This document shows positions 6,845 to 30,190 of a stretch of DNA of 64,000 bases, piece after piece. The stretch is taken from the NCBI GenBank assembly GCA_963674945.2, contig CAXXWQ010000004.1, positions 64,001-128,000 on the forward strand. The letters are read 5' to 3'. Each line of letters begins with the position of its first letter. Position 1 is the first letter of the stretch. The stretch comes from an uncultured Desulfosarcina sp. (lineage in GTDB: Bacteria > Desulfobacterota > Desulfobacteria > Desulfobacterales > Desulfosarcinaceae). A program made the position numbers and the translations under genes. The notes under the pieces were generated by a model that was not told the origin of the DNA, did no database searches, and saw only the letters and a list, made by a program, of their open reading frames with translations.

Positions 6845-6975
6845 AATGATAGCTTATTCACTATTTGTAACAAACTGGTAAAAAAATAACATCTTCTAAA
6901 GTATATGCCAAAAGATATTGATTCAACTTTCGCAAAACGTTTTCGCCAGCATGCTGTGCAGCTTATCTGTAATCG

Positions 6976-7900: not shown

Positions 7901-9334
7901 TCAAATTTTCTTGTACCTGCGGCAAGCTCGACAATCGCTCAACGCAGGTCCAATGATGGTGCCGATGGCAAGGGCACTGGCCGGTGCGATGACAACCAGA
8001 AGCGGGACCAGGTCGTCTTCCATCCATTGCCCTGTCAGGCCGTATAAAATTACCACACGGTAGGCAAGAAAGATGGACCAGGAAAAGACGATTCCGGCAG
8101 GTCCGGCGGCAAACGGGAGAAATGCGACCATATATAAGACATACCAGGGATGAAGCGTCGGCGTCAAAAATAGAAATGCCATGGCAGACAGGTAAAAACA
8201 CTTAGATATCTCTTGCATTCGGAAAAGAGAAGACGAATGGTCTGTTTTACAATGACGAACATAAATGATGACCAACGCGGTAACAAAGACGACGACAATG
8301 ACAAGGCGTGCCGCAACGCCCGATCCTGTCGCCACCCTCAGCCATCGGAAGAGGAACCCTGAAAACTCCCAGTTGGCAGCATATATGAATAAGGTATGAA
8401 AAGATGTTCGCACTTCCGGCCAGAAAAGGACGAACATTGCTGTTGAACTGATCAGAAATCCGAACACCATGTGCTTCCTGCTGCCTGAACCGGTTATCAG
8501 CAGAATTCCCGGCAAAAAAATCAGAGGGATCCATTTGGTTAACACCGCCAGGGAAAGAAAGATTCCCGCGGCACACCCCGGTAGCCACGCCCAATTGGAT
8601 ACAAAAATACCCCATGGTTTCCTTTTCGACCGATATACGGTGGGTTGGCTGGGTGCTTCATTGGAGAGCAGAATAAGAAGGGTCACGAGTAAAAAGAAAA
8701 TTGCCGCCGCGTCGACATGGCCGGATGCGGCAACTTCAATAACCGGCAGGGGATGCCAGGCATAAAGGATGGCGTTGGCGCGTGGCAGGCGAATCTTGTC
8801 GAGTATCCCGATAATAACAACACAACTGGATAGGTCAACCATGACAAGGCATAATTTCATTCCGGTAACATTGCCGATGAATGCACCAACGGCAAACACG
8901 AACTGTGCCGCAGGAGGATAAATGGTAAAAAGTTCCGCGTGATTGATCCGGCTGATGAGCAAAGCCATTGCCCGATTGTCGGTCAGCATTTCAGCGGGAG
9001 GGGCCGCATAGGGGTTGTGACCATCGAGAAACATCAGGCCGTCGAACAGATAGCGGTATATATCATCGGACAGCTCCGGTGCGCGAAATAAGAACAGGAA
9101 GCGCACGGTGGCGGCGATAAGAAGAATAAAACCGGCGGACCATTCAATTTGAATCCGCTGGCTGAGAAACAACGCCAGCGAAATAAGAATGATAATGACG
9201 GCGCTCACGGCAACAAGCTCCGGCACAAAATTTCGCAGATCAGGCAGTAACGCCAACAGTAGATATAAAAGGAAAATAACGAGGGGGAGGCTTTTAATAA
9301 CGAGTTGATTCCGGAATCGAAGGAAATTCGTCAT
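7901..9334 (-). CDS. GT-C fold membrane glycosyltransferase (GT87/DUF2029-like)
   Basis: LSDDIYRYLFDG, TIYPP, YAWHPL, SGHVD, HPWY motifs; multiple TM helices; ATG at 9334 starts just after the napH-like stop. Confidence 0.8.
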   Translation of the reverse strand: MTNFLRFRNQLVIKSLPLVIFLLYLLLALLPDLRNFVPELVAVSAVIIILISLALFLSQRIQIEWSAGFILLIAATVRFLFLFRAPELSDDIYRYLFDGLMFLDGHNPYAAPPAEMLTDNRAMALLISRINHAELFTIYPPAAQFVFAVGAFIGNVTGMKLCLVMVDLSSCVVIIGILDKIRLPRANAILYAWHPLPVIEVAASGHVDAAAIFFLLVTLLILLSNEAPSQPTVYRSKRKPWGIFVSNWAWLPGCAAGIFLSLAVLTKWIPLIFLPGILLITGSGSRKHMVFGFLISSTAMFVLFWPEVRTSFHTLFIYAANWEFSGFLFRWLRVATGSGVAARLVIVVVFVTALVIIYVRHCKTDHSSSLFRMQEISKCFYLSAMAFLFLTPTLHPWYVLYMVAFLPFAAGPAGIVFSWSIFLAYRVVILYGLTGQWMEDDLVPLLVVIAPASALAIGTIIGPALSDCRACRRYKKI

Positions 9335-9342
9335 TGTCAATC

Positions 9343-10242
9343 TTAATTTGCATAAAAATTCTTTACGCCATGTAGAACATGATAATTGATGGCTTGCCTG
9401 GGGCACCGGTCGACACATAGCCCGCAATTATCGCATAATGCCCAATTAAATTCTGATGGATTGCTTTTTAGTAAACTCGGATCAAGCCCCACGGGGCATA
9501 TTTTTGCACATTCTCTGCATTGAATGCATTTTTCGTTTTCAAGACCGATTCTTACGATGCGCCCCCTTCCAAGAAGGGAAAGACCTCCCCCGGAAGGACA
9601 GAAATACCTGCACCATCCGCGTCGAAGCGCAAATAGATCCAGTAACAATACGAGTGTTAATAATCCTGCACCCGCAATGCTGAGGCGATGATGACTAAAC
9701 AGGTTGATCAATTCACGTCCCAAGGCATGAGGAGGATCGAAGACAGAAATTAAAGCCATTTTCCCAAAAAAACCGACGGCCAGAAGCCCCCCTAAGGCGA
9801 TAAAACGAAAATCCTTTATTTCCAAGGCCTTTTTCCAGACAGCACCTCTCCACCGATCGGGTATCTTCATCAGCAGTTCGAGCAAAAATCCCATGGGACA
9901 AAGCCATGAACAGAACACGCGGCCAAACAAAATCGTAATTCCCAGAGGAAGCAATGCCGCTATGAAAAAAGGCATAATCACTCTTCTATATGACGACACG
10001 GATTCTATAAAGGCAATTGGATGACAAATAAAAAACCCATTGATGGATAAACACCATGTGTCGCCACTTATCGGGAAAATTGTTGGTGGCGGCAGATGTC
10101 CCATGACGATGGACGACGGTGACCAATCAGAAGGATTTTGAGAGAAAAAAGGAACAGCGATAATCGTCAGCAGCATCAGAAGCTGAGTCGTTCGCCTGAT
10201 ATGCGTTATTGTGAGGCCTTTCTTTTTCCTTCTATTTTTCAC
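9343..10242 (-). CDS. NapH/MauN-like membrane polyferredoxin (quinol dehydrogenase membrane subunit)
   Basis: GRVFCSWLCPMG, RGWCRYFCPSG, two C-terminal CxxCxxCxxxCP; GTG start overlaps the upstream stop (GTGA). Confidence 0.85.
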   Translation of the reverse strand: MKNRRKKKGLTITHIRRTTQLLMLLTIIAVPFFSQNPSDWSPSSIVMGHLPPPTIFPISGDTWCLSINGFFICHPIAFIESVSSYRRVIMPFFIAALLPLGITILFGRVFCSWLCPMGFLLELLMKIPDRWRGAVWKKALEIKDFRFIALGGLLAVGFFGKMALISVFDPPHALGRELINLFSHHRLSIAGAGLLTLVLLLDLFALRRGWCRYFCPSGGGLSLLGRGRIVRIGLENEKCIQCRECAKICPVGLDPSLLKSNPSEFNWALCDNCGLCVDRCPRQAINYHVLHGVKNFYAN

Positions 10243-10979
10243 TTTTGTTGTTTTCTTTTTATGACGGCAACCGCTGGAAGTGTGGATGTAACAGATCGTT
10301 TGTCGAGGAGTTTTTTGACAAATCCGCCATATCGTTTCTCGTAATAGCCGGATCCGTCTTCTAATGCCGCCGTATCTTCTCTTACGGGACAGATGAAGGT
10401 ACAAACCCCGCATCCGATACAATAGGAAGCATCAATATATGGCGCAAGGTCCCCAATCCCTCCTTCCGGCGGATTTCTCAATAATGCCTTGTCTTTCATG
10501 GGGCAATTAAAGTAGCATTCACCGCAGAATCCAAACTGCCAAGCCACGCATATTTTGCTGTCCAGATCAGCTACCCCGATTTTCAGGTCGTCGGAAAGAT
10601 TTTCGAGTGTTTCTCTATCGTTTCTGATCAGCTTCAGTGCGCCGGTGGGACATGCTTCGCCGCAGCGAAGAAAACGCCCCAGTGTTTTGTTCTCACCATC
10701 TTTCGATACTTCCCGGCATAGGTAGCAGGGTGTCTGCAACGGATCAATAAAAGGCGTATGCACGAGAGCACCGTGTGTTATGTCCAACAAGCGAATGCTG
10801 TCAAAAGGACAAGCCTCGACACACTTGCCGCACCGTATGCATCTTTCCAAAAAGTCGTGGCTCGCTCCGGGAGGTCGTAACACTTCGCAAGCCCCTTTTT
10901 TCGGAATGAAAGCAGCAAACCCGATGATGCCGGTCTGAATCAAAAAGGTTCTCCTGCTTATCACGGGGCGCTTCATCAT
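10239..10979 (-). CDS. NapG/MauM-like periplasmic polyferredoxin with Tat-type signal
   Basis: SRRTFL twin-arginine motif, LRPPGA, CIRCGKCVEACP and further ferredoxin motifs. Confidence 0.85.
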   Translation of the reverse strand: MMKRPVISRRTFLIQTGIIGFAAFIPKKGACEVLRPPGASHDFLERCIRCGKCVEACPFDSIRLLDITHGALVHTPFIDPLQTPCYLCREVSKDGENKTLGRFLRCGEACPTGALKLIRNDRETLENLSDDLKIGVADLDSKICVAWQFGFCGECYFNCPMKDKALLRNPPEGGIGDLAPYIDASYCIGCGVCTFICPVREDTAALEDGSGYYEKRYGGFVKKLLDKRSVTSTLPAVAVIKRKQQK

Positions 10980-11028
10980 TTGTACTTCACTTACTTTCCG
11001 GGCGTTGCGAAACATCGTCATGGGGTAT

Positions 11029-11069
11029 ATTCCGAATTCACCGCTGATCCAATGCGGTGAATTCGGAAT
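11029..11069. terminator. 16-bp perfect-stem hairpin between the receptor gene and napG-like gene (attenuator or mRNA stabiliser)
   Basis: ATTCCGAATTCACCGC-TGATCCAAT-GCGGTGAATTCGGAAT; no strong U-tract. Confidence 0.5.
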
Positions 11070-11085
11070 TAGGGGATGGGACCAG

Positions 11086-13200
11086 TTAGAAAGTGTATTT
11101 TATCTGAGCCCCGATCGTCTGTTTGGGCATGGGATACCCGTACACTTCCTGGTAGTTTTCACCAAAGAGGTTGTTAACATAAACCAAAAGTTTGGCCTTG
11201 TCTGATAAAAACGTATATTGCATCCCGACATCGGTAATAAAATAGCTATCCATGTCGTACCCGCCTTCACTCTTTCGGACACCAACATAACGCATATCAC
11301 ATGTCGCCATGAGATCTTTCATCAAGTCGTACCGAACACCGAGATTTGCCTTGTGTTTCGGTGGGACATCCACCCAAAACGAATCCGGCAGATCGGTTTC
11401 ATCGACTTTGTTTTCAAGATAGGTGTAGTTGCCGAAGATATTGATTGTATCAAACCTTGCGTCAAACTCAAACTCCATGCCATAAAAACCAACGCTATCG
11501 ATATTATAGGCAAACGCATTTGGATTATAGGCACTCGGCCTGTCGAGGGCGACATAATCGGAGACGTCCGAGTAGTAGACCACAAATCGAACATCGATGT
11601 TTTCCCTGATACGATGATACACCCCAGTGTCATAATGCCAGCTTGACTCATATTCCAATTTTTGCTGCAGCGCACCCGTGCGCATGTAGTAAGCCTCATC
11701 TCAACATCCCGGAACATGATAGTCCCTGTTTACCGATATGAATACGCTTGTCGCGGGCTGTAACTGGTGTGTCATGGTCACCTTCGGCAACCAAAATGTG
11801 TCGGTATAATGGTGCCTGTATTTAGGCACATCGGGATCGAGGGTATAGGGATAGGTTCGCTGATCGATCACGGACATCCGCAACCCGGTTTTCAGCGTCC
11901 ACTTGGGTAAAAACGCCCACACATCTTCGAAATATCCCGAGTTTATTTCGAATATTTTCGGCATCTCCTCCGCCCCGGTTTTTTTGTAGGAATATCCGAC
12001 ATCCAATGAATTGTTTTCCCAAAGATCGGCGTTCAGCTCAATGCCGCCGCCGATATGCTTTTCGATATACCCATCTCCACCACTAAAACTTTGTTCCTTG
12101 TTGCCGTCGTCGTCTAAGGTAATGTACCAACTGTTCTCCTCTCCCTCGGTATTGTAAAAATGCAACTTTAATAGAAATTTTTTAATTTGCTGCTCATAGG
12201 CGACATCGTAATGGTCCGCACTCTTTTCCTTATAATTCTTTTGCCCCGGGTCTTCGGGATAGGAAATGGAAGCCATTTTCAAGGTGTCCGCGTCTTTGGT
12301 CACCGTCGGATAATCGGGATCGTAATCGTCACGCGATGGATCGTTTACAACCGGATTATCCCGGGTAAACTCGGATCCTTTGTAGGACAGTGTAAGAAGG
12401 CCCTCAAAAGGAAACCGATAGCTCAACCTGGCAGAATAATTGTCTGAATCCCATTCGTTGTTTCTGAGGTAGCCGTCCGACTCCTGATGTCCGTATGATA
12501 AAAAATAGGTCAGGTCGCCGACACCGCCGTTCATCGTCGCATTTCCGGAAAAGGCCTGGGGATTATCATACTCGGGGATGATGGTATAATCTCCTCGAAC
12601 CGTGATCTTTGGTTTTAAAGTATCTTGTTTCTCCCCTTTTTTCATGATGATGTTAATGACGCCGCCTGCTGAATTCTCATACTTGGCTGAGGCGCCGCCC
12701 CGTATTATTTCTATTTTCTCGATGTCCGACAGGTTCAAACTCGACCAATCGATGGGCGTCATCGCCTTTCCGGACGAGCCGGTCACCGGCCTACCGTCGA
12801 TGGCAACCGTATAACGACTGTCCTCGAAACCGCGAAACATAATCACCTGTTGTGGATCGGGAATCGTTGAGCTGCGCATGACATCGATTCCCGCCATGTT
12901 CATCAGAATGTCCTCAACGCGATCGACAGAGCCGCTTTTCACATATTTATCGACGTCAACGATTGTGCTTGTGGGCGTGAATTTGATGGCGCCGCCATGG
13001 AAGGCGTGCACAAAGACATCCCCTAATTCGACAGGTTCTTCATCTTCCACCAGATCTACCGGTTCCTCAACTTCCGGCGGGCATGTCGGGCAGTCAGCAT
13101 TACCACTATTCGAGGTCTGGGACAACGCGACATTCGGTAGTAGCAGCAGTTTCACACAGCATCCGACCAGAAACAACTTCAACGTCCTTTTCAAAAACAT
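11086..13200 (-). CDS. TonB-dependent outer-membrane receptor, probable selenoprotein (704 aa, UGA=Sec at codon 500, Cys-Sec motif)
   Basis: ORFs 11701..13200 and 11086..11685 share a frame and are separated only by TGA at 11701-11703 (…HVPGC-TGA-DEAYYMRTG…). Plug motifs (MFRGF, IDGRP, IEKIEIIRGGASAKY…GGVINII), barrel ending in YTF; SECIS-like hairpin right after the TGA. Confidence 0.85.
11664..11700 (-). promoter_or_regulatory. Putative bacterial SECIS element of the TonB-dependent receptor
   Basis: mRNA UGA-GAUGAGGCUUACUACAU-GCGCA-CGGG-UGCGC-UGCAGC: 5-bp GC-rich upper stem, G-rich tetraloop 22 nt after UGA, extendable lower stem. Confidence 0.7.
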
Positions 13201-13240
13201 CCTTCTTTTCCTTTCTTCACCATGGTTGTTCTGTTACAAA

Positions 13241-15421
13241 TCACACTTTTTCAATATTGCACAAAAATCCCCTGTAAGCGGGAAATGCGCTGATGGGATC
13301 CAATACCCCATCGTCTGTCAGTTCATTGGCACTGCTTTTATCCCAGCCGTGGGTCATCGCCACTTGGCCTTTGCCTAATCCTTTGATCAAGATCGCCTTT
13401 GCTGTTATGCTGCCCCTTGGAGAAATAATTCTCACCGCATCCCCATTTGAAATTCCTTTCGACGCAGCATCCTCCGGATTGATTTCGACCATCGGCTCAG
13501 GAGATTTTTTTAGAAGCGACGGGATATTATGATATTGAGAATGGTAAAAATATTTAATTCTACCACCGGTGTTCATTATGAAGGGATATGCTGACTGCAA
13601 TTCTTTGTTCCCGTAATTCTCATATGGATTCACGTAGACAGGCAGCGGGTCATACCCGAATTTTTTGAGTGTCGGGGATGAGAATTCTATTTTTTTCGAA
13701 GGCGTGTCAAGGCCTCTTTTTTCATATTTTCTGTATTGCGTAGTCTCGGATGGATGAACACCATTGAAGTTTTTCCTCAATTGGGCCGCAGTCAGATTCA
13801 CCGGTTTTAAATGCTCGTCGATCGCTTCATCGAGATTTTGCCATGGAAATTCTTTCGTGTATCCCATTGTTTTTGCCAATTCGAACCAGAATTTCCATGT
13901 GGGCCATGCTTTTCCCTGCTCCGGTATGACTTTGGGGGTCATAAAAATACTGTTTCGCGCCTTAAAGCCGTCACACTCCATAAATGTCGCCGCCGGCAAC
14001 ACGATATCGGCCATTTTTGCTGTCTCGGTCATAAAAAGATCCATGACGACCATGAGATCAAGCTTTTTAAAAGCTTCTCGCTGATGGGACACATTGGGCC
14101 CGGTCGAAAGGGGATTGCCGCCGACCACCAAAAGTGCTTTGATCGGATAAGGCTTGCCGGTCAAGATCGTCTCCGGCAATTTGTTTGCGCTTACCATATC
14201 ATGGTATTTCCACAAGAGTGGATAGCTCTCTTCCGTGATTCCGGGAACAGCCCTGTTTCTTATTTCTTTCAGATCCATGGGGGCAAGCTCGGTTTTTCGT
14301 TCCGACATCATGTTGCCCCCCTTAATATCGATATTGCCCGTAAGCGCCTGCAGAAGCTGTATGGAACGAATGGTCTGTACACCGTTTAGATGGAGTTCAA
14401 GGGCATTTCCCGTTGAAATACAGGCAGGACCGCTAGTGGCATATTCTACCGCAAATTTTTGAATATCGTCGGCCGGAATGCCTGTAATGGCCGCCGCTTT
14501 TTCGACCGGATACGCAGAAGCGAGTTTTTTGTATTCATCAAACCCGAGTCCATAGCTTTTCACGAACTTTTCGGCATACAGTTTCTTTTGGATAATGATA
14601 TTTGCCACGGCAAGGGCAAGTGCCCCGTCCGTTCCGGGTTTCGGACTGAGGTGACGATCCGCGACTCTGGTCATGGCGCCGGGTCGTGGATCGATGCATA
14701 CGAGTTTTGCACCCGATTCTTTCGCAGGAAGAACCCGGTTTAACCACGTCGGAATACTCGAGGTGGCAGGATTACAACCCCACTGGACGATATAGCGGGA
14801 ATTCTCATAATCCGACCATAGGGAGCCGATACTATACTTTTTGGCAACGGCACCTGCGACATGACACTGGCTGCCGCATCCCGTGAAATTGGGGGAGCCA
14901 TACACATCGCAAAAACGCCTTATAAAGTTCCTGTAGAAACCATCTCGCACCTGACTCACACCATAATGGAATACGACGGATTCAGGTCCCGGGGATGATT
15001 TGTATTCACCGAGCTTTTCTGCAATCTCTGCGAGAGCTTCATCCCAGCCGATCTCGACAAATTTGCCACCCTTTCTTTTCAGAGGACTCAATATCCTGTC
15101 CGGTGCATGGACAATCTCCGGGGTCGCAAGCCCCATATCACATAAAAATCCTTTGGATATCGGATCCTCTTCCCATGGCCCAACCGCCTTGATGATGTTA
15201 TCCTTAACATACGCCTTCATACCGCAGTCTTTGCCGCAAAGACCGCATCTTGTTATAATTTCTTTGGTTCCCGCCAATTGATTCTTGCTATTCTGACTCG
15301 CGGAAAGAACGCCTGCTCCACTAAACGCTACAGAAATGCCCGCAATTTCGAGAAACTTTAAAAATTCCCGCCGTGTGTATCCATTTGATGCCGTTTTCGG
15401 AACGATGATTTTCTTTTGCAA
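13241..15421 (-). CDS. Tat-exported molybdopterin (Mo/W-bisPGD, DMSO-reductase family) oxidoreductase catalytic subunit
   Basis: TRREFLK Tat motif; CGLCGKDC…LC [4Fe-4S]; GSQCH candidate Cys ligand; WGCNP, IDPR, PGTDGAL, DLFMTETAKMADIVLPA, HSQYHN; TTG start after GAGGAG. Confidence 0.9.
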   Translation of the reverse strand: MQKKIIVPKTASNGYTRREFLKFLEIAGISVAFSGAGVLSASQNSKNQLAGTKEIITRCGLCGKDCGMKAYVKDNIIKAVGPWEEDPISKGFLCDMGLATPEIVHAPDRILSPLKRKGGKFVEIGWDEALAEIAEKLGEYKSSPGPESVVFHYGVSQVRDGFYRNFIRRFCDVYGSPNFTGCGSQCHVAGAVAKKYSIGSLWSDYENSRYIVQWGCNPATSSIPTWLNRVLPAKESGAKLVCIDPRPGAMTRVADRHLSPKPGTDGALALAVANIIIQKKLYAEKFVKSYGLGFDEYKKLASAYPVEKAAAITGIPADDIQKFAVEYATSGPACISTGNALELHLNGVQTIRSIQLLQALTGNIDIKGGNMMSERKTELAPMDLKEIRNRAVPGITEESYPLLWKYHDMVSANKLPETILTGKPYPIKALLVVGGNPLSTGPNVSHQREAFKKLDLMVVMDLFMTETAKMADIVLPAATFMECDGFKARNSIFMTPKVIPEQGKAWPTWKFWFELAKTMGYTKEFPWQNLDEAIDEHLKPVNLTAAQLRKNFNGVHPSETTQYRKYEKRGLDTPSKKIEFSSPTLKKFGYDPLPVYVNPYENYGNKELQSAYPFIMNTGGRIKYFYHSQYHNIPSLLKKSPEPMVEINPEDAASKGISNGDAVRIISPRGSITAKAILIKGLGKGQVAMTHGWDKSSANELTDDGVLDPISAFPAYRGFLCNIEKV

Positions 15422-15438
15422 TGCTGTGTCTCCTCATC

Positions 15439-15846
15439 TTATATGTTTTTCTCAGTGGCAAGGCAGAGTCTCCCGGCGCCGGCCGCCTTGGCCAGATCCA
15501 TTACGCGAACCACCTTGTTTAAAACGGTGCCACGATCGGCCTTGATGACGACAAGCCTGTCAGGGTCTGTGCCGATCTGCCCTTTGAGCTCTGTAAACAG
15601 TTTGTCCAGGGAGATTTCCGTATCGGCCAGATAGGCCCGTCCCTCGCGGTCCACGTATACGGTAATCTCCTGTTGGGTCTGGGGTGCGGCTGCCTTGGCT
15701 TGGGGAAGCTTGATCTTAATTCCCTCATCGACCATGAAATTGGTGGTCAATAAAAAGTAGATCAGCAGCATGAATACAATGTCGATCAGAGAAGTCAGGG
15801 GTGCCTGAATCTGATACCGGTCTTTTTTTTTTCTCTCGGTGAACAT
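15439..15846 (-). CDS. exbD: Biopolymer transporter ExbD/TolR
   Basis: LTSLIDIVFMLLIYFLL, IKLPQA, VVIKAD motifs. Confidence 0.9.
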   Translation of the reverse strand: MFTERKKKDRYQIQAPLTSLIDIVFMLLIYFLLTTNFMVDEGIKIKLPQAKAAAPQTQQEITVYVDREGRAYLADTEISLDKLFTELKGQIGTDPDRLVVIKADRGTVLNKVVRVMDLAKAAGAGRLCLATEKNI

Positions 15847-15867
15847 AAAAAGTTCCTATATACATGA

Positions 15868-16482
15868 TTATACGGGTTGATTCTTGTTGATGGCCTTCAT
15901 GAAAGACACGGCCCCACCTTGCAATCTGGCCTCATATTTATCCACTCTGGCAATCAGATAACTGTGCGCCACCATGGTGGGCAACGCAACCGCCAAACCA
16001 AACGCCGTCGTCAGCATGGCTTCCCATATACCGCCGGCGAGAACGGCTGCGTTCACCTTGCCGCCCATCTGCTGAATGACCATGAAGGCCTTGATCATTC
16101 CCACAACGGTTCCCAGAAGTCCCAGCAAAGGGGCAATATTTCCGATGGTGGCCAGTGTCTGGAGGTAGGACGACAGGTTCCTGACCTCTTCTTCCGTTGC
16201 GTGGACCAATACGGTTTCAATGGTTTCGCGGTCCTGGTCCCTCACATCGATTGCCTGGGCCAACACCCGGCCCATGGGTGAATTGCTTTCGGAAGCTAGC
16301 TGCAGCGCCTCTTTCTCTTTTCCCTCTTTAAGAAATGAAACAGTCTTTTTCGCCAGACCGGCGCCGCGACTTCGCATCCGGCTGAACCGAATCAACCGTT
16401 CCACAAAAATTGCCAGTGCAAAAACAGAACAAAGCAGTATGGGAACGACGAGAACGCCCCCTTTGGATAAAAATTCGAGCAT
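15868..16482 (-). CDS. exbB: MotA/TolQ/ExbB proton channel
   Basis: IAPLLGLLGTVVGMIKAF, GIWEAMLTTAFGLAVALP. Confidence 0.9.
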   Translation of the reverse strand: MLEFLSKGGVLVVPILLCSVFALAIFVERLIRFSRMRSRGAGLAKKTVSFLKEGKEKEALQLASESNSPMGRVLAQAIDVRDQDRETIETVLVHATEEEVRNLSSYLQTLATIGNIAPLLGLLGTVVGMIKAFMVIQQMGGKVNAAVLAGGIWEAMLTTAFGLAVALPTMVAHSYLIARVDKYEARLQGGAVSFMKAINKNQPV

Positions 16483-16497
16483 TGTTTTTTCCTTACG

Positions 16498-18327: not shown

Positions 18328-18344
18328 CTTGCTTTCCGAAAGCT

Positions 18345-19046
18345 TCAGGTTGTCTCGAAAATAATATTCAATTCCATGGGGATATCTTTTTTAAAAAATC
18401 GGTGCGGAGGTCTTGGAAACGGGGCCGCTCCCTTTACCGCCTCGATGGCGGCCTGGTTGAGTATGGCATGGGGACACGATTGAACGACCTGAACGTTGCG
18501 CACCCCTCCCTGGCGGGTCACCACAAACCGCACGGTGATACGCCCCTCTTGTTGCATACTCTTGGCCGATTCCGGATATTTTTTGCTCGATTCGATTTTG
18601 AGTATCACCATCTCATAGTAGCTTTTTGCAGTGGTGAATGCAGCCGATGTGTCCAGGATTTCGCCGATCTGGTAATTACTCCGGCCGGCATTCAAATCGG
18701 ACGGCAGGTCCGGAACGGAAATCTGGGCCATTAGATTCTTGGAAACGGAGTTGTCAACCGGGTCGATTTTCATGGGCTGGATACGCGGAACACGCATGCG
18801 TTTCACACGGACCTGTTTGACATCTTCGGGTTGCTCGAGCTGTTTGGGACGCATCACCGGTCGCGGAATGGTCCTTGCAAAAGATTTTGAAAGATCTTGC
18901 ATGGAAAGCTCGATATAGCTGATGGCCTGGGATTGGTAGATACCCGCCACATGCAGCAATATGAAAATATGAAGTACAATGGATACCATAATCAGGTATC
19001 GCAGTAGCTTATTGGGACCTTGATTCGGGTGTTGTAATGCTTCCAT
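18345..19046 (-). CDS. tonB: Energy transducer TonB
   Basis: SIVLH TM anchor, Pro-rich linker, KKYPESA…EGRITVRF…LNQAAIEAV…APFP C-terminal domain. Confidence 0.85.
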   Translation of the reverse strand: MEALQHPNQGPNKLLRYLIMVSIVLHIFILLHVAGIYQSQAISYIELSMQDLSKSFARTIPRPVMRPKQLEQPEDVKQVRVKRMRVPRIQPMKIDPVDNSVSKNLMAQISVPDLPSDLNAGRSNYQIGEILDTSAAFTTAKSYYEMVILKIESSKKYPESAKSMQQEGRITVRFVVTRQGGVRNVQVVQSCPHAILNQAAIEAVKGAAPFPRPPHRFFKKDIPMELNIIFETT

Positions 19047-19210
19047 AGTAAAAATCGTCCGGGCGGTTATAATGTTACGTAATCACTAACGCCGGCAACC
19101 GGCCGGCCCCACTTACCTGTTCTCGACCCTTTTGCTAGAAAAGAATCACTTGTGAAAATCTCTCACATCCACTGTTGTGAAAGCATCCAAGATGCAACCG
19201 TGTCCCCTGT

Positions 19211-20218
19211 CTATGTATTCCCTCTTCTATTTTCTTCCGGCGACTCGTGTACCGGCAAATAATTGTAATCAACAATCTTTTCGATGGGGACACTTTTAGG
19301 CAACTTACCGATATTGATCATGATTTCCTGCTGTTTGTAAATTTGCCGTTCCGGTTCCCTTCCATCTTCAAATTCTCGGAGCGCGGACTTCATCGCCACT
19401 TTCATCTCCACTCCGGTGTATTTGGGAATCCATCTTCTCGCACTCATTTCATTATGTTTGATATAGTCAAAAGCCTTGACCAGCCCACGAAGAAAAGCCC
19501 TGACTTTTTGCGGATGCTCTTTCAAGTACTTGTCCGTAAAGAACAGTCCGCTGAATATGTATCCTGGAATCGCATCGTTGAACGATACCAACAGTCGGCT
19601 CGCACCATGCATCTCCAGCATGGTCGCGGTTGGATCTCATGCCAGAATGACATCAACTCCCTTGGACTTTAAGGCCGCCTCATGTTTCATGGAGTCATCC
19701 AGCTTGATCCCTTTAATGGCCCGTATGTCGTCCTTTGTCAGCCCGGCCATTTTCAATGTCTCCGACAGAATCATGGCCGTTGTAATGGACCCGGATTCAG
19801 CCACCCGGCTCCCCCTTAAATCGTTTACCGAATGGATCTCGCTTTTTTGATCCACGTGCAGTCCGCACCGTGTACCGGTGTGGGCATGCCCCAGCCAGGC
19901 CACTATCTTTATGGGGATATTTCTAAGACCCGCATGAAAGACCCCGCCCAGATCGAGTTGGCCGGCATCGATATCCCCATGAAGGGCGGTGGCAATGATA
20001 TTGTGCTCACCCACCAGGCGGATCAGGTGTACATCCAACCCTTCCTGCTTCCAAAGGCCCTGCTCCAGGCCGACGTACAGTGGCAGATCGTCAATACTGC
20101 GGCTGTACGTGATGGTCATTTCCTCCAAGGCTGGTTCCGCGGCTGTGCCATGGTTCACCATAAAAAAGGAAAGAGCGGTTACGGTTGTCAATACGGTTAA
20201 CACGATCCGTCTGTTCAT
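19211..20218 (-). CDS. NMT1/SsuA/TauA-like ABC substrate-binding protein, probable selenoprotein (335 aa, UGA=Sec at codon 194)
   Basis: ORFs 19637..20218 and 19211..19621 are in frame across a single TGA at 19637-19639 (…GVDVILA-TGA-DPTATMLEMHG…), the position of the usual 'wEP' motif; signal peptide; strong SECIS-like hairpin follows. Confidence 0.85.
19601..19636 (-). promoter_or_regulatory. Putative bacterial SECIS element of the substrate-binding protein
   Basis: mRNA UGA-GAUCCAAC-CGC-G-ACCAUGC-UGGAGAU-GCAUGGU-GCG: 7-bp perfect stem plus 3 bp past a bulge, G-containing loop 19 nt after UGA. Confidence 0.75.
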
Positions 20219-20376
20219 AATGTCTCTTTTTTAGTGTCCGTCCGGAAATCGGCAAATTTGGTCGAGATCAAGGCGCGTGAAAATTTTTCCGCAGGCATAT
20301 GGTTGATATTCCGAGGATAAAATTTTGAGCGCAACGCCGATATCGGGCAAATTGGCCATTTCTGGATGGACACTTT

Positions 20377-21144
20377 TTAGTTGCCTCCGGCCAGGGATGT
20401 CTCTGTATGCCATACGAGAATATGCCCCTGGATAAAGCGTGCCAGACGATCCAGTGAGAACCCCATGAGAGAAATCACGAGGATCCCGGCAAACATTCTG
20501 TCCGTCGCAAATGTCCGTTGGGCATCGATCACCAGGAAACCGATTCCGGAATCCGCCGCCAGCATTTCAACGCCGACGATGGCCAGCATGGACATGGCCG
20601 TTGAAATACGCATGCCGGTGATAATCATCGGAAGCGCCGAAGGAATGAGAACCTTTGTCCACATCTGCAAACCGTCGGCCCCCAGTGCCCGCGCCGCCTG
20701 AATCAAACGGACATCGACGCCTTTGATGCCGGCAATCGTATTGAGCACGATGGGGAAAAAGCATGCCTTGACAATGATGGCGATCTTCGAGCCGTTTCCG
20801 ATACCGAACCACACAAACATCACCGGAACGAGGGCAAAGGTTGAAATGGGACGAATCAGCTCAATCAACGGATCGAAAATATTTTCGAATAGTCTCGACC
20901 AGGCCACCAGAATACCGATACTCAGTCCCATCGCCGCAGCAATCAGATATCCGGCCACAGCCCGCAAAATGCTGACCCCGATATGGGGAAACACTTCTCC
21001 GGATATGGTCATGTCATAAAGCGCTGCCAGTATGGAACTGGGGGCCGGGAAAAAAAATGGATCGATCAGGCCGCTTTGACCGATCACTTCGCACACGATC
21101 AGAATGAAAAGTGGCGAAATCATTTTTTTCCAGCTGCCCTCCAT
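20377..21144 (-). CDS. ABC transporter permease (NitT/TauT, SsuC-like)
   Basis: FFPAPSSI, LIRPIS, WFGIG, AARALGA EAA-loop, VEMLAADSGIG; ATG overlaps the ATPase stop (TAATG). Confidence 0.9.
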   Translation of the reverse strand: MEGSWKKMISPLFILIVCEVIGQSGLIDPFFFPAPSSILAALYDMTISGEVFPHIGVSILRAVAGYLIAAAMGLSIGILVAWSRLFENIFDPLIELIRPISTFALVPVMFVWFGIGNGSKIAIIVKACFFPIVLNTIAGIKGVDVRLIQAARALGADGLQMWTKVLIPSALPMIITGMRISTAMSMLAIVGVEMLAADSGIGFLVIDAQRTFATDRMFAGILVISLMGFSLDRLARFIQGHILVWHTETSLAGGN

Positions 21145-21914
21145 TATTCCTGCGAATCCTGTATCTCTTCCCAAATCATTCCCCGCAGAGCCTGTTCATA
21201 CATGACGAATTGCGGTGTCGTCAGGTCGGCTCTTGTTCGCGGCCTCGGGATATCGATGGTCAGTGTGGCCATGATCCGGCCCGGCCGCCTGCTCATCACG
21301 ACGACGCGATCGGAAAGATAAATCGCTTCACCGATACTGTGGGTGACAAACAACACCGTACATTTCGTCTCTTGCCATATCCGCAACAGCTCTTGCTGAA
21401 GCAATTCCCGCGTCAGGGCGTCCAGCGCCCCGAAGGGTTCATCCATGAGCATCACTTTGGGCTCATTGGCCAGGGCCCTGGCAATGGCGACCCGCTGTTT
21501 CATCCCACCGCTGAGTTCATGGGGATAACGGTTTTCAAACTTGTTCAATCCTACCAGATCGATATATTTTGCGCTGATGTCGCGCCGTTTTGTTTTCGCG
21601 ACCCCGCGTACTTCCGGGCCGAACTCCACATTGCCTCTCACCGTTTTCCAGGGGAACAAAAGGTACTCCTGAAAAACGATGGCCCTTTTGGGGTCGGGAC
21701 CGTTGACTGAATGACCGTCAATCATGATCCTGCCCCTCGTCGCCTTCTCAAGCCCGGCCACTAGGAGCAAGAAGGTTGATTTGCCGCATCCGCTGGGACC
21801 CAGTATGGAGACAAACTCCTTTTCCCGGACCTGCAGGTTGAACTCATCGATGGCCACAACCTGCCTGTTTTTACAATCAGAGAAAACCTTGCATACGCCT
21901 TGGGCCCGGACCAT
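21144..21914 (-). CDS. ABC transporter ATP-binding protein (NitT/TauT family)
   Basis: GPSGCGKST, LSGGMKQR, LMDEPFGALD, FVTH. Confidence 0.92.
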   Translation of the reverse strand: MVRAQGVCKVFSDCKNRQVVAIDEFNLQVREKEFVSILGPSGCGKSTFLLLVAGLEKATRGRIMIDGHSVNGPDPKRAIVFQEYLLFPWKTVRGNVEFGPEVRGVAKTKRRDISAKYIDLVGLNKFENRYPHELSGGMKQRVAIARALANEPKVMLMDEPFGALDALTRELLQQELLRIWQETKCTVLFVTHSIGEAIYLSDRVVVMSRRPGRIMATLTIDIPRPRTRADLTTPQFVMYEQALRGMIWEEIQDSQE

Positions 21915-23075
21915 TTACCTTGTCGATCCGGCCATGATCTGTTCAATAAATCCCTCGATGCGGACTCTGAGCTGCCCCACATCCGAATGGGAGTAATCCG
22001 TCACCACATGTAGGTAAGGAAGGCCATGTTTTTCTTTCACTACTTCTCCCACACGGTAGGACTCGATATTGAACGCATGGCAGGACTGCCAGGTCAGGTC
22101 GATGACACCCTGGATGTTGTATTCGGTGATCAGTCGGTCGATCTGTTCGAATCGCGTGTCGTTGGGTGTCATACAGGCGCAGGTTACCTTTAAATAGCGC
22201 CGCGCGATGCCTTCAATGGGATCATCACCCGGATCGATCCGATCATCCAGCCGCGTGACCCCACCGCACCCTTCCTGACACACCACTACGCCACCGCTCT
22301 CTTCCACCAGGCGCAGCACCTTGTCACACCCCAGCGAGTTTCCAAGGCCGGTCCATAAGATTCGCGGCCTGTTTTCGCTGCAGGCGAACTGCTTTTTACG
22401 GATCCTGTCTTGAAGCGTTTCCAGCATTGATTCCAATTTTCTAAGGTATTGTTTGCGGTCTACGGTGTACGACATGCCTGTGGAAAGGGCCACCAGATCC
22501 AGACCCATAATGGGCACTGGATTGGACTTCCTGCATTGATGGATCCGTTTCAATAATGCTCTCTCCACGTTTCCCTGTTCGATGGCATCCATCAATGCAT
22601 CGTCCGTAATCCGGGTATCCAATTGGTCTTCAAGAAAGGATTTGAGCTTTCTCACCTCATCGATCCAGTAAACCAGTGCCCCCGCATTTTCCGGCTTTTG
22701 CGGCAGATCCATCACATGCATGGGTTTTTCACGGCCCAACAGCTCGTACATTTTCTTGCGGCCGTCGCATGTGGTCTCGCCAACGAGACAATCAGCAAGA
22801 GGAAAAATCGGGCAGGTATTGTTGATGGCCCGTCCATAGGTGGCTTTCACCATGGGGCACTGGTCGACCGGAAGTACTCGTTCCGCCGCATCGATGGGTC
22901 CTGGTGTCGTTCCGCAAAGCCCGACGGTGATGGCCCCGGCGGCCCATGCCACCTCTCGCGGAAAATAGGAGCACAGGCAACCCACCACTTTTCTCCCCTC
23001 GTCTTTCGCCATCTCCAGGTCCAGTGCGAAGGAGGTTTTTACTTCATCGATTTTTTTGGTGTTTCTCAAATCCAC
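21915..23075 (-). CDS. Double-cubane [8Fe-9S] cluster reductase (DCCP-like; 2-hydroxyacyl-CoA dehydratase/HgdB family)
   Basis: VVGCLCSYFP, GLCG, AERVLPVDQCPMVKATYG, TCPIF, GETTCDGRKKMYELL, EGCGG, CACMTPN, SCHAFNIE, DYS..DVGQLRVRIEGF: the Cys-rich pattern of the double-cubane subgroup. Confidence 0.8.
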   Translation of the reverse strand: MDLRNTKKIDEVKTSFALDLEMAKDEGRKVVGCLCSYFPREVAWAAGAITVGLCGTTPGPIDAAERVLPVDQCPMVKATYGRAINNTCPIFPLADCLVGETTCDGRKKMYELLGREKPMHVMDLPQKPENAGALVYWIDEVRKLKSFLEDQLDTRITDDALMDAIEQGNVERALLKRIHQCRKSNPVPIMGLDLVALSTGMSYTVDRKQYLRKLESMLETLQDRIRKKQFACSENRPRILWTGLGNSLGCDKVLRLVEESGGVVVCQEGCGGVTRLDDRIDPGDDPIEGIARRYLKVTCACMTPNDTRFEQIDRLITEYNIQGVIDLTWQSCHAFNIESYRVGEVVKEKHGLPYLHVVTDYSHSDVGQLRVRIEGFIEQIMAGSTR

Positions 23076-23094
23076 GACATCTATCCTCGAGCAC

Positions 23095-23898
23095 CTAACG
23101 GCATTTCAGATACACTTGCTCTTTTGCAAAGACCGCAGCCCCCAAGGCCCCGGTGATCTGCGCATCCGCGTTAATGGGGATGAATCCGAACCCAAAGTAT
23201 TTTTCCAGGGCCAAGCGCAAACCCTGGTTTTTGGCACCCCCCCCTACAAAAGCAACATTTCTAAATGGATTTAAACGTTTGGCCATATTTCCAACTCGCC
23301 GGGCAATACTTTGGTGTAAGCCGGCGGCAATATCGTTTTTCGTGTTGCCCGCGGCCAGCAGGGAAATCACTTCCGATTCCGCAAACACGATGCACGTGCT
23401 GTTGATTTGGCAAGGCGTACCGGTTTCCATGGACATATGGCTGAAATGATCCATTGGTACTTCCAGTGAACGCGCCATCATTTCCAGAAACCGTCCGGTT
23501 CCGGCTGCACATCGGTCATTCATGACAAAATCGGCGACACTTCCATCCTTGTTCAATGTGATGGCCTTAGCGTCCTGACCGCCGATGTCGATCAGTGCTT
23601 CCACATCGGGATTCAGATAATGCACCCCCTTGGCATGGCATGAAATCTCCGTAAGGGCTTTATCCGCAAAAGGAAGAGAAATCCTACCATAACCTGTTGC
23701 CACGATACGTTTCACATCCTTTTGTTTGCGATTGGCATGATCCAGCACCTTTTGGAAAACAGTTTCACCGGCCTTTTGCGGTTCTGCACCAGTTCGCAAG
23801 ATTTGTGCGGCGACAATTCCCGCATCGTCGATGACAACCGATTTTGCCGTCAAAGAGCCGACATCAACCCCGGCATACAGTCCATTTTCTACCGTCAT
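23095..23898 (-). CDS. ATP-dependent [4Fe-4S] activator (HgdC/BadF-type archerase, DCCP-R-like)
   Basis: GVDVGSLTAK, ATGYGR, EISCH, IDIGGQD, MNDRCAAGTGRFL, STCIVFAESE. Confidence 0.92.
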   Translation of the reverse strand: MTVENGLYAGVDVGSLTAKSVVIDDAGIVAAQILRTGAEPQKAGETVFQKVLDHANRKQKDVKRIVATGYGRISLPFADKALTEISCHAKGVHYLNPDVEALIDIGGQDAKAITLNKDGSVADFVMNDRCAAGTGRFLEMMARSLEVPMDHFSHMSMETGTPCQINSTCIVFAESEVISLLAAGNTKNDIAAGLHQSIARRVGNMAKRLNPFRNVAFVGGGAKNQGLRLALEKYFGFGFIPINADAQITGALGAAVFAKEQVYLKCR

Positions 23899-24190
23899 CG
23901 TTCACATTCCCAAAAAGACCTGATACTTGCCGGATGCTTCATTTTAGTAAAAACCGGCTCAAATGGTGAGAAAAGACGCACCGCACCATCCGTAAAACCT
24001 GATGAGCCAATGAGACGTTGGATCACCAAGTCGCCGAGGAAGAATGCTTGTGAAAGTTACTGGGATAGAAAGGTGAAATACCTAACAATCGGAGGTCCCG
24101 TCACAACAGCTATTCCAATGGCAACCACCCGGGCAGCCAGCACCGAGTCTCTCATGTAAATCCTGCATGACGGTAAAGTGCGAACATAAG

Positions 24191-24205
24191 TGATATTGAA
24201 TATCA
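24191..24205. promoter_or_regulatory. 7-1-7 palindromic operator (Fur-family-like box) upstream of the activator/DCCP operon
   Basis: TGATATT-G-AATATCA; differs from the TGATAAT-N-ATTATCA Fur consensus at one symmetric position; AT-rich promoter region. Confidence 0.5.
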
Positions 24206-24465
24206 TATTTCCGTTAAAAAGTGGCTTCTCATAGTATAAAGGGCGAAAAAATACAATGAGATTTTACCTATACGTCCGACAACTGAGATTGAATATCCAA
24301 ATACCACTATGAGAACAAAAATCCTCAAGGAATTATGCAACAATTTTTATTATACAGTTGTATAATACTATTTTTATTGATAAATTCTACCTATCAGCAA
24401 TACATGACAAACGATAAGATCATTCTGTTTTCACCATGTTGGCAGCGTTCTCACTTTCCCCCATA

Positions 24466-25494
24466 TCATTTACCTAGAGGGCAGACGGGAAAATTGCAGG
24501 TCGTACAGTTCAGGCACAATCCGCCGTGACCGAGCATCGCGATTTCCCTTCTTGTGATTTTTTCGCCGGCCAGTACACGGGGGAGAATCAAATCCAATAT
24601 GGTGCGCGCCGCATACATCCCGCATGCCGGTATTCCAAGGACCGGGATTTCATTCAGATAGGCCACCATAAACATGGCACCGGGCAGTACGGGAGAGCCA
24701 TAGACCATGTCTATGACCCCCGCCTTTTCAAGGGCATGGCGGCTTCGGTCATCCGGGTCGACGGACATGCCCCCCGTGCTGATGAGCAGGTTGATCCCTT
24801 TGCCCGCCAATTCTTTTGCGGCACCGGCAATCTTATCATCCTCGTCCGGAAGGAAAATCACATCCACGATCTCTCCATCCATTTCTGCGATCTTTTTCCG
24901 AACGATCGATTCAAATTTGTCCTTGATACGGCCATAATACACCTCGTTCCCGGTGATCATGACGCCGGCCTTGGCCTTTTTCATGGGAACGACGGAAAGT
25001 ACCCCCGATGTTGCGGTGTTGGCGGCGTTCACGGCACAAGAAACGATGTGTCGGGGCACCAGCAGCGGGATGGCCCGCGTTGCGGCAACCTGCTGGCCCT
25101 TTCGTACGATGGTGTTTGTGTGGCGGGTGGCGCACATCACCTCTCCGAACATGTTGAACCGGAAAAGGGCTTCTACATCCACTTTCAACAACCCGTCGCA
25201 GGTGGCATGCAAGCTGAGTTTCCCCTCCCGGGGGGCATCCTTCCAGCCGACGCCGCTGCCGCACAAGGCACTGGCGAGTTCAACGGCGGCTTCGTCCTCA
25301 TGCATTTCGTCGATTTCCGGCTTGATTATGTAAAGATGCTGTTTTCCCAGGCGGCGCAGATGATCCAAATCCTTGTCTTTCAGAATATATCCTTTTAGGA
25401 AGGCAGGGCCTTTGAACTCGCCGGGCCTGATCTCCGTTATGTCATGAGCCAGTGGATGACCGATAGCCTCTTCGATTTCAACGACTTGGATCAT
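24466..25494 (-). CDS. Molybdopterin-binding protein (MoeA-like, probable Moco/Wco biosynthesis related)
   Basis: LAHDITEI…GPAF, ITGNEVYYGRIKD, STGGMSVDPDD, YGSPVLPGAMF, C-terminal GGLCLNCTTCNFPVCPLGK. Confidence 0.85.
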   Translation of the reverse strand: MIQVVEIEEAIGHPLAHDITEIRPGEFKGPAFLKGYILKDKDLDHLRRLGKQHLYIIKPEIDEMHEDEAAVELASALCGSGVGWKDAPREGKLSLHATCDGLLKVDVEALFRFNMFGEVMCATRHTNTIVRKGQQVAATRAIPLLVPRHIVSCAVNAANTATSGVLSVVPMKKAKAGVMITGNEVYYGRIKDKFESIVRKKIAEMDGEIVDVIFLPDEDDKIAGAAKELAGKGINLLISTGGMSVDPDDRSRHALEKAGVIDMVYGSPVLPGAMFMVAYLNEIPVLGIPACGMYAARTILDLILPRVLAGEKITRREIAMLGHGGLCLNCTTCNFPVCPLGK

Positions 25495-25602
25495 GTTCTC
25501 TCTTCCTTACTCTCTAAATTTCAATGAGCGCTTTCTCAATCTGCAGCCGATGATACTCTCGATACTATCGGTGGATCCTTATTATGTGCTACTTGTTAAC
25601 GG

Positions 25603-26673
25603 CTATTCAGGAATTCCTATTTCCCTGTCATTCGCGTCATTCGTGGACCAAAGGAACCATCCTCCCTCGTAGTTTGCGGCAGGCCATCCCATCATGTACG
25701 CATAGAAGGTATACATGGCCGACCGCGCGCCGCCGCCGCAATAAAAATACATCTTCTTATCGGATGTAAACCCTTTCTGGGTCCAATTGTAATTTGCCTG
25801 ATCAAAGGAAATAAAGTATTGGTGATCCTGACTTGCAATATCAACCCAGTCTCCGATCCATCGTGCCGTGGGGATACGGCCATATTCTTCAAACCACCAA
25901 TAGTATGAATTCGATTCGCCGGTGAACTCTGTCCACTCACGGTCATCGACGATGACGGAATCAGGATCAATGCCATCGATGACATCCTGAACATCTTCGG
26001 TAGTGGCAATATACTCCGGGTGCCCGGAGGATTCGCCAAAACTATCCACGGGGGTCCATGAGGTTGGACCCGTCTCCACGGAGTATCCGGCTTCCGTCCA
26101 TGCTTGATAGCCCCCATTAAGGATACGGACATCGTTGACCCCTGCATAGAGTAACGCCCAGGCGATACGCCCTGCTGTCATCATGGAGATATCATCATTG
26201 GCGTATACGATTACCGTTTTATTCATGGTGATTCCCATGCTTGCAAAAAATGCCTGCAGGACGGGAAGATCCTTGACATAGGAGTGGCTCGGACTCTCAT
26301 ACCCCTCATATTCTGAAGTCGGACCGGTCTCTACCGAATAGGTATCCAGAAATATGGCACCGGGTACGTGCCCTTCTGTCGCAAAAGGAGTTCCGTCCCC
26401 CGTAGTGGAGATCTCATTTGTCTCCCATCGGGGCCACCAGGATGTAAATACAATTACGTATCCATTGCCGGGATAGGTTTCGGGATTGTTGCCGTCAATC
26501 AGATCTTTGACCCATTCGGCAGACACCAACGCCTCAGGATGTGGGGTGAGTGAACCGTCATCGTCATCCGTGATGGTATTACCAGTATTATTGGAGCTGT
26601 CGCTGCACCCGGTCAAAAGCAAGATACACAGTATCGAAAAAATGAAACAGGATTTTATAGTTCTTCCTAACAT
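25603..26673 (-). CDS. Tandem-domain rhodanese/sulfurtransferase lipoprotein
   Basis: Lipobox LLTG-C; LVSAEWV, GHVPGA, LNGGYQAW, DDRE..EF.G, active-site loop YCGGGARS, YEGGW. Confidence 0.85.
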   Translation of the reverse strand: MLGRTIKSCFIFSILCILLLTGCSDSSNNTGNTITDDDDGSLTPHPEALVSAEWVKDLIDGNNPETYPGNGYVIVFTSWWPRWETNEISTTGDGTPFATEGHVPGAIFLDTYSVETGPTSEYEGYESPSHSYVKDLPVLQAFFASMGITMNKTVIVYANDDISMMTAGRIAWALLYAGVNDVRILNGGYQAWTEAGYSVETGPTSWTPVDSFGESSGHPEYIATTEDVQDVIDGIDPDSVIVDDREWTEFTGESNSYYWWFEEYGRIPTARWIGDWVDIASQDHQYFISFDQANYNWTQKGFTSDKKMYFYCGGGARSAMYTFYAYMMGWPAANYEGGWFLWSTNDANDREIGIPE

Positions 26674-28915: not shown

Positions 28916-28993
28916 GCGTCGATGTTCTCTCCTTTTCATGGGGTGCGGCCGGGCCACAATTACGACCCGGCCGCTTGCTCGGGGTCCGGGGGG

Positions 28994-30160: not shown

Positions 30161-30190
30161 GATCGACTCCTTTTCTAAATGGCTTGTGCG

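Follow-up and report, generated by a model that had tools for sequence, protein, structure and literature searches.

A conserved import operon with probable selenocysteine codons and a double-cubane reductase in an uncultured Desulfosarcina

Our study concerns a stretch of 64,000 nucleotides (the window) from an uncultured Desulfosarcina sp. (assembly GCA_963674945.2, contig CAXXWQ010000004.1, positions 64,001 to 128,000), in which an initial annotation made from the letters alone had described a same-strand run of genes with two in-frame UGA codons and read it as a selenoprotein-based import and reduction system. All 16 genes of this run lie on the minus strand, from 26673 down to 7901, and their coordinates, their families and the frames that continue past both UGAs were confirmed, the Pfam and NCBIfam models agreeing with every gene label apart from 'GT87'. 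The core consists of a predicted ATP-dependent activator resembling DCCP-R (23095..23898; PF01869, and TIGR00241 at 268.9 against a cut-off of 125.4), a predicted double-cubane [8Fe-9S] reductase of the short, YjiM-like class II type (21915..23075), an ATP-binding cassette (ABC) ATPase of the NitT/TauT type (21144..21914), an ABC permease without selenocysteine (Sec; 20377..21174) and a periplasmic binding protein whose gene contains the first TGA (19211..20218). These are followed by TonB (18345..19046; PF03544), an exported protein with DxDxDG repeats (16498..18327), ExbB (15868..16482; PF01618), ExbD (15439..15846; PF02472), a molybdenum or tungsten (Mo/W) enzyme (13241..15421), a TonB-dependent receptor whose gene contains the second TGA (11086..13200), and NapG-like (10239..11021) and NapH-like (9343..10422) ferredoxins. 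From the activator to the NapH-like gene the gaps measure at most 64 bp, save one of 158 bp, which holds a multicopy repeat, and one of 164 bp.

When the TGA at 19637-19639 is read as Sec, the frames 19637-20218 and 19211-19621 fuse into a binding protein of 335 residues with Sec at position 194 (U194); the same reading of the TGA at 11701-11703 fuses 11701-13200 and 11086-11685 into a receptor of 704 residues with a C499-U500 pair, and each of the two genes has a single in-frame TGA. Logan contigs span both codons without alternative letters (run X1 is possibly the source sample). TGA serves as the stop of ordinary genes in this genome, and the Sec machinery on which the annotated reading depended is present in it: selA, two copies of selB and selD, all over cut-off, and two tRNA-Sec genes. 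Across the carriers of the system, selA was found in 34 of 35 genomes.

The comparative evidence for the binding protein comes from 61 database proteins, our own record being one of the fragments among them, and from the DNA of the corresponding loci, leaving aside four loci that stop short of the site and, in L023, a paralogue at 21% identity. The site is TGA in all 50 fetched loci that span it, some of the metagenome loci among these 50 duplicating GTDB loci, and also in three genomes found later (53/53 altogether), and TGG, TAA and TAG occur there in none of the 53. As many as 57 of the 61 proteins are N-terminal fragments that end just ahead of the TGA site, and the four that are full length (P0004-P0007) carry Cys in its place (C-D-P); these Cys forms sit within the Sec clade of the tree (support 0.997), the root of which is weakly supported (0.44-0.80). 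A profile search of 1.84 billion representatives returned a small, discrete family that is split at the Sec position, and its more distant full-length relatives have hydrophobic or small residues there, Cys in none. The selenocysteine insertion sequence (SECIS) of the gene lies on the minus strand at 19601..19628, with a CCATGC/GCATGG stem and G at loop position 2, and its fold has a z of -2.37 in our copy. Two of its codons, CTG for L201 and CAT for H204, are the same in 33/33 one-per-genome sequences, whereas in the rest of the gene 90 positions are both conserved and degenerate and none of them reaches 95% for one codon; frozen codons of this kind point to a constraint on the RNA itself, in a hairpin whose loop has G at position 2. 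The family thus has what Haft and Gwadz ask of a selenoprotein, namely at least 10 examples, TGA in 100% of them and similarity that continues through the site.

The initial annotation had claimed a SECIS for each gene, and while that of the binding protein is strong, that of the receptor (minus strand, 11670..11683) is weak in our copy taken alone, where 26 of 60 control codons reach its -5.8 kcal/mol or do better. Downstream of the Sec site, 16/16 receptor homologues have a hairpin whose loop contains G, against 32/57 control positions, a comparison among related and not independent sequences. Receptor copies over cut-off in carrier genomes have TGA in 12 of 13 cases and Cys in the remaining one, and the last residue of the P-G-C-U motif is always Cys or Sec in the 19 aligned receptors (19/19). 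Both TGAs are therefore kept in relatives and not unique to this strain, and by comparative criteria both UGAs are likely Sec codons.

In the receptor model, which has 22 strands and a mean predicted local distance difference test score (pLDDT) of 69.2 (about 50-65 at the site), the Cys-Sec pair opens a helix after strand 13, which we take, by the usual barrel topology, to be extracellular loop 7. By fold, the receptor is nearest to those for siderophores, B12 and PQQ. Ahead of the TonB box, our receptor and most of its homologues have a CPxC-like motif, and a perfect 16-bp hairpin, possibly a terminator or an mRNA stabiliser, occupies 11029..11069 between the receptor and NapG-like genes. TonB and the DxDxDG-repeat protein recur together in 11 loci and ExbB/ExbD in eight; the repeat protein falls in a weakly recognised, DUF6802-like Atlas cluster. 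NCBIfam already has a family for the receptor, NF049946 (TonB_dep_CU), on which it scores 972.4 bits (cut-off 700), and Sec-containing TonB receptors are already in print (PMC12013277; here and below, cited papers are represented by their accessible parts). Because the receptor is already curated, only the binding protein escapes current curated models, so the claim that standard pipelines hide both key genes stands for the binding protein, which passes none of these models, and falls for the receptor. What our study adds is an ABC binding-protein family that is near-universally Sec-containing and that gene callers cut in two. Further TonB receptors below the TonB_dep_CU cut-off have one or two in-frame TGAs (G009 C1:2639234, 1251826 and 8251868; G081 C46:14770) and are probably other types of Sec receptor.

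The predicted model of the binding protein (pLDDT 90.8) has the ThiY/TauA/SsuA fold, and fold searches with this model and with that of the receptor returned generic matches only, to substrate-binding proteins and TonB-dependent receptors, respectively. D43, D44, H113, C118 and H121 are invariant in 42 binding-protein sequences, D44 is Cys in the clade that we call C, and no Cys occurs ahead of C118. U194 aligns with W176 of TauA and W183 of SsuA; since W176 touches the 2-(N-morpholino)ethanesulfonic acid bound in the TauA site (PMC6906117), the alignment would place U194 in the ligand cleft. Compared by eye, U194-D-P occupies the same Sec position as T-U-D-P in the SaoX representative given in the supplement of PMC12013277, and the score on the SaoX model NF040735 is 53.7, below the cut-off of 300. 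On this sequence comparison the binding protein is best described as a new SaoX-related family and not as a new kind of selenoprotein, given that its Sec site equals the U-D-P site of SaoX.

The genes around the binding protein are conserved with it, in line with the synteny that the initial annotation had predicted among relatives. The permease comes ahead of the binding protein in 30/30 GTDB loci, and among those with room for the genes in question the ATPase lies upstream in 27/28 and the double-cubane reductase in 24/25; in G286 a more distant double-cubane cluster protein (DCCP; 43%) occupies the same slot. The activator is present in most relatives' loci, where it usually adjoins; in ours it lies 19 bp upstream of the reductase. 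The permease homologues have no conserved internal stop, and no Cys was found in the 35-residue region shown for 47 of them. We conclude that the invariant unit is formed by the activator, the double-cubane reductase and an ABC importer with a Sec binding protein. The reductase itself scores 465 against 350 on NF040772, the family whose co-occurrence characterizes the selenocysteine-assisted organometal (SAO) system discussed below; its seven Cys residues align with those of DCCP_Ch from Carboxydothermus hydrogenoformans, and it lacks the N-terminal extension of that protein, its residue 20 aligning with residue 61. In the accessible part of PMC7317905, double-cubane enzymes have no physiological substrate on record. 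A double-cubane reductase fixed in an importer operon suggests that its substrate comes through that importer; the enzyme is, in effect, hard-wired behind a specific importer whose ligand should reveal its substrate. It is important to note that the natural Cys forms of the binding protein need no recoding for expression, so that the ligand question is directly testable. A second DCCP gene of our own genome (G000), in a cluster at C4:606168-613360, likewise stands ahead of genes labelled by eye as a NitT/TauT binding protein, a permease and an ATPase; genes for a corrinoid protein and a methyltransferase-like protein come next, and this cluster recalls the mlp clusters of PMC10418091.

The Mo/W enzyme is of the bis(pyranopterin guanine dinucleotide) (bisPGD) type, bears a twin-arginine translocation (Tat) motif and has Cys186 at the predicted metal-ligand position; among proteins of solved structure, the best relatives of the enzyme are FdhF, acetylene hydratase and PsrA. 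A second residue, C182, is specific to its clade (21/22 orthologues against 0/40 of the next more distant matches). Among the families tested (FdhF, PhsA, YnfE/F, ArrA, TtrA and NapA) none takes it in, and it stays below every named cut-off, with 375/666 for Fdh-alpha, 310/694 for PhsA, 179/1675 for YnfE and 110/1600 for ArrA. Our study thereby gives an unnamed Mo/W enzyme clade a defined genomic context. An intact orthologue is present in our genome, G067, G068, G320 and G397; in G066, G070, G071 and the second G320 copy it is broken or a fragment. The fragment of the Mo gene in L014 has a TGA at Cys66, an Fe-S residue, and since the remainder of that gene lies elsewhere, in pieces, we take this codon for a sign of decay. 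The accompanying NapG-like ferredoxin, with a Tat motif, reaches 105 of 269 bits on NF007012, and the NapH-like membrane ferredoxin, whose real start is probably near 10240, reaches 110 of 213 on TIGR02163, both below cut-off. Partners of this kind serve quinol-fed periplasmic reduction, as established for Nap, and by analogy they imply that the Mo/W enzyme may be fed by quinol through NapH and NapG for a reduction in the periplasm. Near the operon in three genomes lies a gene for an exported protein with a match to the sulfite-oxidase-type molybdopterin domain (L006:5400-6416, L083:15825-16862 and L084:4956-5963).

The modules outside the core are nested within its distribution. In clade A, where the binding proteins are at least 61% identical, 13/13 genomes have a receptor over cut-off, compared with 0/18 of the other carriers. 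Clade B (16 loci) has no receptor; instead, a gene for a small exported protein of about 157 residues follows the binding protein (L019:10993-11460 and 15 other loci), for which no known family was identified, and the Atlas searches named no function for it or for the DxDxDG-repeat protein. We also sampled 400 genomes without bias from the phylum, kin among them not being independent and few candidates per genome being scored: three have the receptor, the same three have the Mo orthologue (at least 58% identity), and the Sec binding protein occurs in these three and in one more. These results tie the Mo enzyme and its NapG/H partners to the system, as the initial annotation had proposed, and show that the receptor with TonB and the Mo enzyme with NapG/H are nested add-ons to the core. 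Gene order is shuffled among genomes and membership stays; according to the record titles, the carriers are diderm Desulfobacterota, SAR324 and Myxococcota.

The membership that had been proposed for the whole run holds for the core, the receptor and the Mo/NapGH genes, clade B lacking the receptor, and it does not extend to two of the flanking genes. The MoeA-like gene (24466..25494), separated from the activator by 567 bp, was rejected as a core member; it is a local duplicate, 98% identical to a copy at C3:162998, and it occurs in no other related locus found. The label 'GT87' for the membrane glycosyltransferase-like gene at 7901..9427 finds no Pfam match and only a sub-cut-off hit to MptB (23.4 against 40 bits), and this neighbour was likewise rejected, since its one other occurrence found is next to a decayed G320 copy and on the other strand. 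More loosely linked is the lipoprotein with tandem rhodanese domains in the Cys form (25603..26673; PF00581): rhodaneses are not in the related loci first collected, but they flank both G320 copies, where two of them have TGA at the catalytic Cys (FY-U-G; L095:17638-18537 and L098 near 13275), the former with a hairpin downstream. Also outside the system is a MITE-like palindromic repeat of about 140 bp between the permease and binding-protein genes (20233..20374), which folds into one long hairpin, has 86 blastn matches in our genome and shows very high depth in Logan contigs. Scans for promoters and terminators gave counts at chance level (25 against 25.4 and 25 against 22). Beyond the run, positions 27044-31603 of the window hold genes for CobW, a Tat-exported metallo-beta-lactamase and membrane proteins that are duplicated near C4:1.006-1.010 Mb, and positions 866-7851 hold a VTT/CCG Fe-S fusion (diclust_near_Sec-like), an IS1380 element and two GT2 genes, one of them TIGR04283-like (161/182); the set of VTT/CCG, 'GT87' and rhodanese genes is also found beside the decayed G320 copy. 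A selenium island at G000 C3:567978-585446, with YedE, SirA-like and DUF3343 genes, a second selB and a tRNA-Sec, lies beside another TonB system with its receptor.

We conclude that the system is real, conserved and, in the literature searched, undescribed, and that it is partly built from curated families. The searches yielded no description of the operon or of the binding-protein family, most subscription papers lying outside that literature, and no paper giving an operon or substrate for TonB_dep_CU. The accessible part of a 2026 selenoprotein inventory (PMC13188914) has SaoX, SaoB, BtuF and the FCYXU receptor, and no entry for the binding protein was seen in it.

Gene content, synteny, codon conservation, the RNA-level constraint on the SECIS and the nested co-occurrence of modules were observed directly, and an outline in which an energised importer of a trace substrate, lined with selenols and thiols, feeds a low-potential reductase is well supported. 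As to the cargo of this importer, gene context favours selenium. Among 14 GTDB carrier genomes with the single-copy selenium gene YedE, 4 have it within the locus, where about 0.06 loci would be expected per unlinked cluster; YedF lies inside the locus in three more GTDB genomes, LysR_Sec_metab, IscA/HesB-Se and SelB are likewise among the neighbours, and the rhodaneses with TGA beside the G320 copies add to this selenium context. In published surveys, 955 of 970 high-scoring DCCPs come from SelD genomes (bioRxiv 10.1101/2022.07.06.499078), activator/dehydratase-like genes are linked to YedE/YedF (PMC5322559), and DCCP is present in methyl-selenide salvage clusters (PMC10418091). Our tentative proposal, to which we give a little under even weight, is that this conserved operon imports a trace selenium species captured covalently on selenols and freed inside the cell by ATP-driven reduction. 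We hold with somewhat greater reserve, as a possibility, the more specific route in which selenium is passed covalently from the Sec receptor, by way of the Mo/W reductase and Sec-rhodaneses, to the Sec binding protein and then freed as selenide by the double-cubane enzyme. In the general proposal, the receptor, energised by TonB/ExbBD, would bind its cargo on the Cys-Sec pair at the fold-predicted start of extracellular loop 7. In the lineages that have them, the Mo/W enzyme, supplied with quinol electrons through NapH/NapG, and the rhodaneses might then turn oxidised selenium (an oxyanion or a selenoxide) into a form that reacts with selenols. The cargo would be bound by U194 of the binding protein, putatively together with the invariant C118, H113, H121 and D43 in the cleft, the permease and ATPase would import it, and its reduction by DCCP and the activator would yield selenide, which carriers of the YedE/YedF/DUF3343 type would pass on to SelD. 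If true, the more specific route would mean that a DCCP has a physiological substrate for the first time and that selenium has an uptake path of its own across both membranes. The system could also explain how anaerobes rich in selenoproteins get hold of trace selenium where sulfide is in excess.

Several observations weigh against the selenium proposal. A Sec requirement for importing selenium is circular under severe selenium starvation and would better fit feed-forward uptake or selenium-rich conditions. It is a general tendency of selenium genes to lie near selenoprotein operons, and their proximity may mean supply and not substrate. The YedE cluster of our own genome is elsewhere (C3:568 kb), YedE was not found in 16 of the 35 carrier genomes (many of them incomplete metagenome-assembled genomes), and two of the four genomes with YedE in the locus are both Desulfobacula. 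Neighbours concerned with Mo/W and metal transport also exist (TOBE, ModA-like, FmdE and ZnuABC). The Mo module is broken in four copies, so that it is dispensable, and the reductase misses the channel-closing N-terminal extension, which suggests a substrate larger than a bare selenium anion, since the class II type may accept larger substrates (PMC7317905).

The main rival to the selenium proposal is uptake of a thiophilic nutrient metal, in which, in sulfidic habitats, the Cys, Sec and His sites would bind a scarce metal or its complex (Cu(I), Ni, Co or thio-Mo/W), which DCCP would strip or activate by reduction in the manner of ferric-siderophore reductases. TonB receptors usually bring in scarce metal chelates, as the nearest folds of our receptor recall; the CU/CC motifs and the invariant His/Cys/Asp set, with the Cys at D44 in clade C, resemble metal ligands; and the metal-related neighbours just mentioned, together with MoeA, point the same way. 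We nevertheless regard metal uptake as rather unlikely, given that fewer neighbours handle metals than selenium, that the Sec-rhodaneses indicate chalcogen transfer, that no recurring metalloregulator or metal chaperone appeared among the neighbours scanned and that MoeA is just a local duplicate.

We consider improbable the uptake and transformation of a toxic metal(loid) or organometallic compound (Hg/MeHg, As(III) or Te), as proposed for SAO. The best models of the ATPase and permease are SaoA and SaoP, the Sec site matches SaoX, a TIGR04283-like glycosyltransferase lies close by (161/182) and our genome has hgcA; but hgcA is over cut-off in 17/35 carriers against 115/251 class-level background genomes, which is no enrichment, so the link to Hg methylation was rejected and the inclusion of Hg among the candidate substrates in the initial annotation is unsupported in this respect. 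The MerB-like SaoL is over cut-off in 1/32 carrier genomes, which shows that the search works, and it is a lone gene there and not part of a nine-gene locus; no recurring ars, mer or dedicated metal efflux pump gene appeared among the neighbours scanned. Also improbable, and no better placed, is the import and reduction of a sulfur compound (sulfonate, thiosulfate or polysulfide) to serve energy supply or assimilation, Sec acting as a Cys of greater reactivity: the SsuA/TauA fold, the rhodaneses and the resemblance of the Mo enzyme to PhsA/PsrA suit it, but by their record titles the carriers belong mostly to lineages of the sulfate-reducer type, for which sulfur is not scarce, the PhsA score is less than half of its cut-off and TonB-energised uptake implies a trace substrate. 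A reading of the two genes as pseudogenes in which TGA is a nonsense mutation or encodes Trp, as the Trp residues of TauA and SsuA aligned with U194 and the weak SECIS of our own receptor might hint, was rejected as extremely improbable on comparative grounds, in view of TGA in 53/53 loci, Cys in the full-length homologues, the conservation of both gene halves, the frozen SECIS codons, the use of TGA to stop ordinary genes in this genome and its two tRNA-Sec.

Among known systems, the closest is SAO (bioRxiv 10.1101/2022.07.06.499078). According to the accessible part of its description, both systems have an ABC importer of the NitT/TauT type with Sec or Cys in the binding cleft, both are tied to NF040772 double-cubane proteins with an activator, and our ATPase and permease score best on SaoA (267.8 against 360) and SaoP, while the binding protein shares the 'UDP' Sec site of SaoX. 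They differ in that no SaoL, SaoB or SaoC was found here, the permease is without Sec, DCCP and its activator lie inside the operon, a Sec receptor of the TonB type, its TonB/ExbBD and a periplasmic Mo/W enzyme accompanied by NapGH are added, and the carriers are diderm by their record titles. With the Sao models run, the initial view that this is not a canonical SAO locus was borne out: SaoL is absent from our genome, SaoA, SaoP and SaoX stay below cut-off, and the permease, at 168.5 of 295 bits, does not show the Sec/Cys gate of SaoP. SaoB and SaoC have no match in our genome (98.7% complete), but control searches for them were also blank, and the locus has no such open reading frame; among the reading frames of the locus, the SaoT, SaoE and SaoD models have no match. 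The binding protein is like SaoX (NF040735) in fold class and Sec position, and unlike it in having neither a lipoprotein signal with its Cys nor a CC motif (SaoX 224-225) and in that Sec is near universal here and rare in SaoX. The receptor is a member of TonB_dep_CU with its CU motif and with no sequence difference from that family. The Mo/W enzyme shares its Mo/W-bisPGD and [4Fe-4S] domains and the Cys at the metal-ligand position with the DMSO-reductase family (FdhF, acetylene hydratase, PsrA/PhsA), but forms its own tight clade (at least 57% identity) with a Tat signal, the extra C182 and NapG/H partners in place of PsrB/C. Finally, the reductase and activator resemble DCCP/DCCP-R of C. 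hydrogenoformans and YjiM/YjiL (PMC7317905) in the seven-Cys motif, the adjacent archerase-type activator and an E value of 2e-80 to 6ENO, and depart from DCCP_Ch in missing the N-terminal extension of about 40 residues, as in class II, and in being fixed inside an importer operon.

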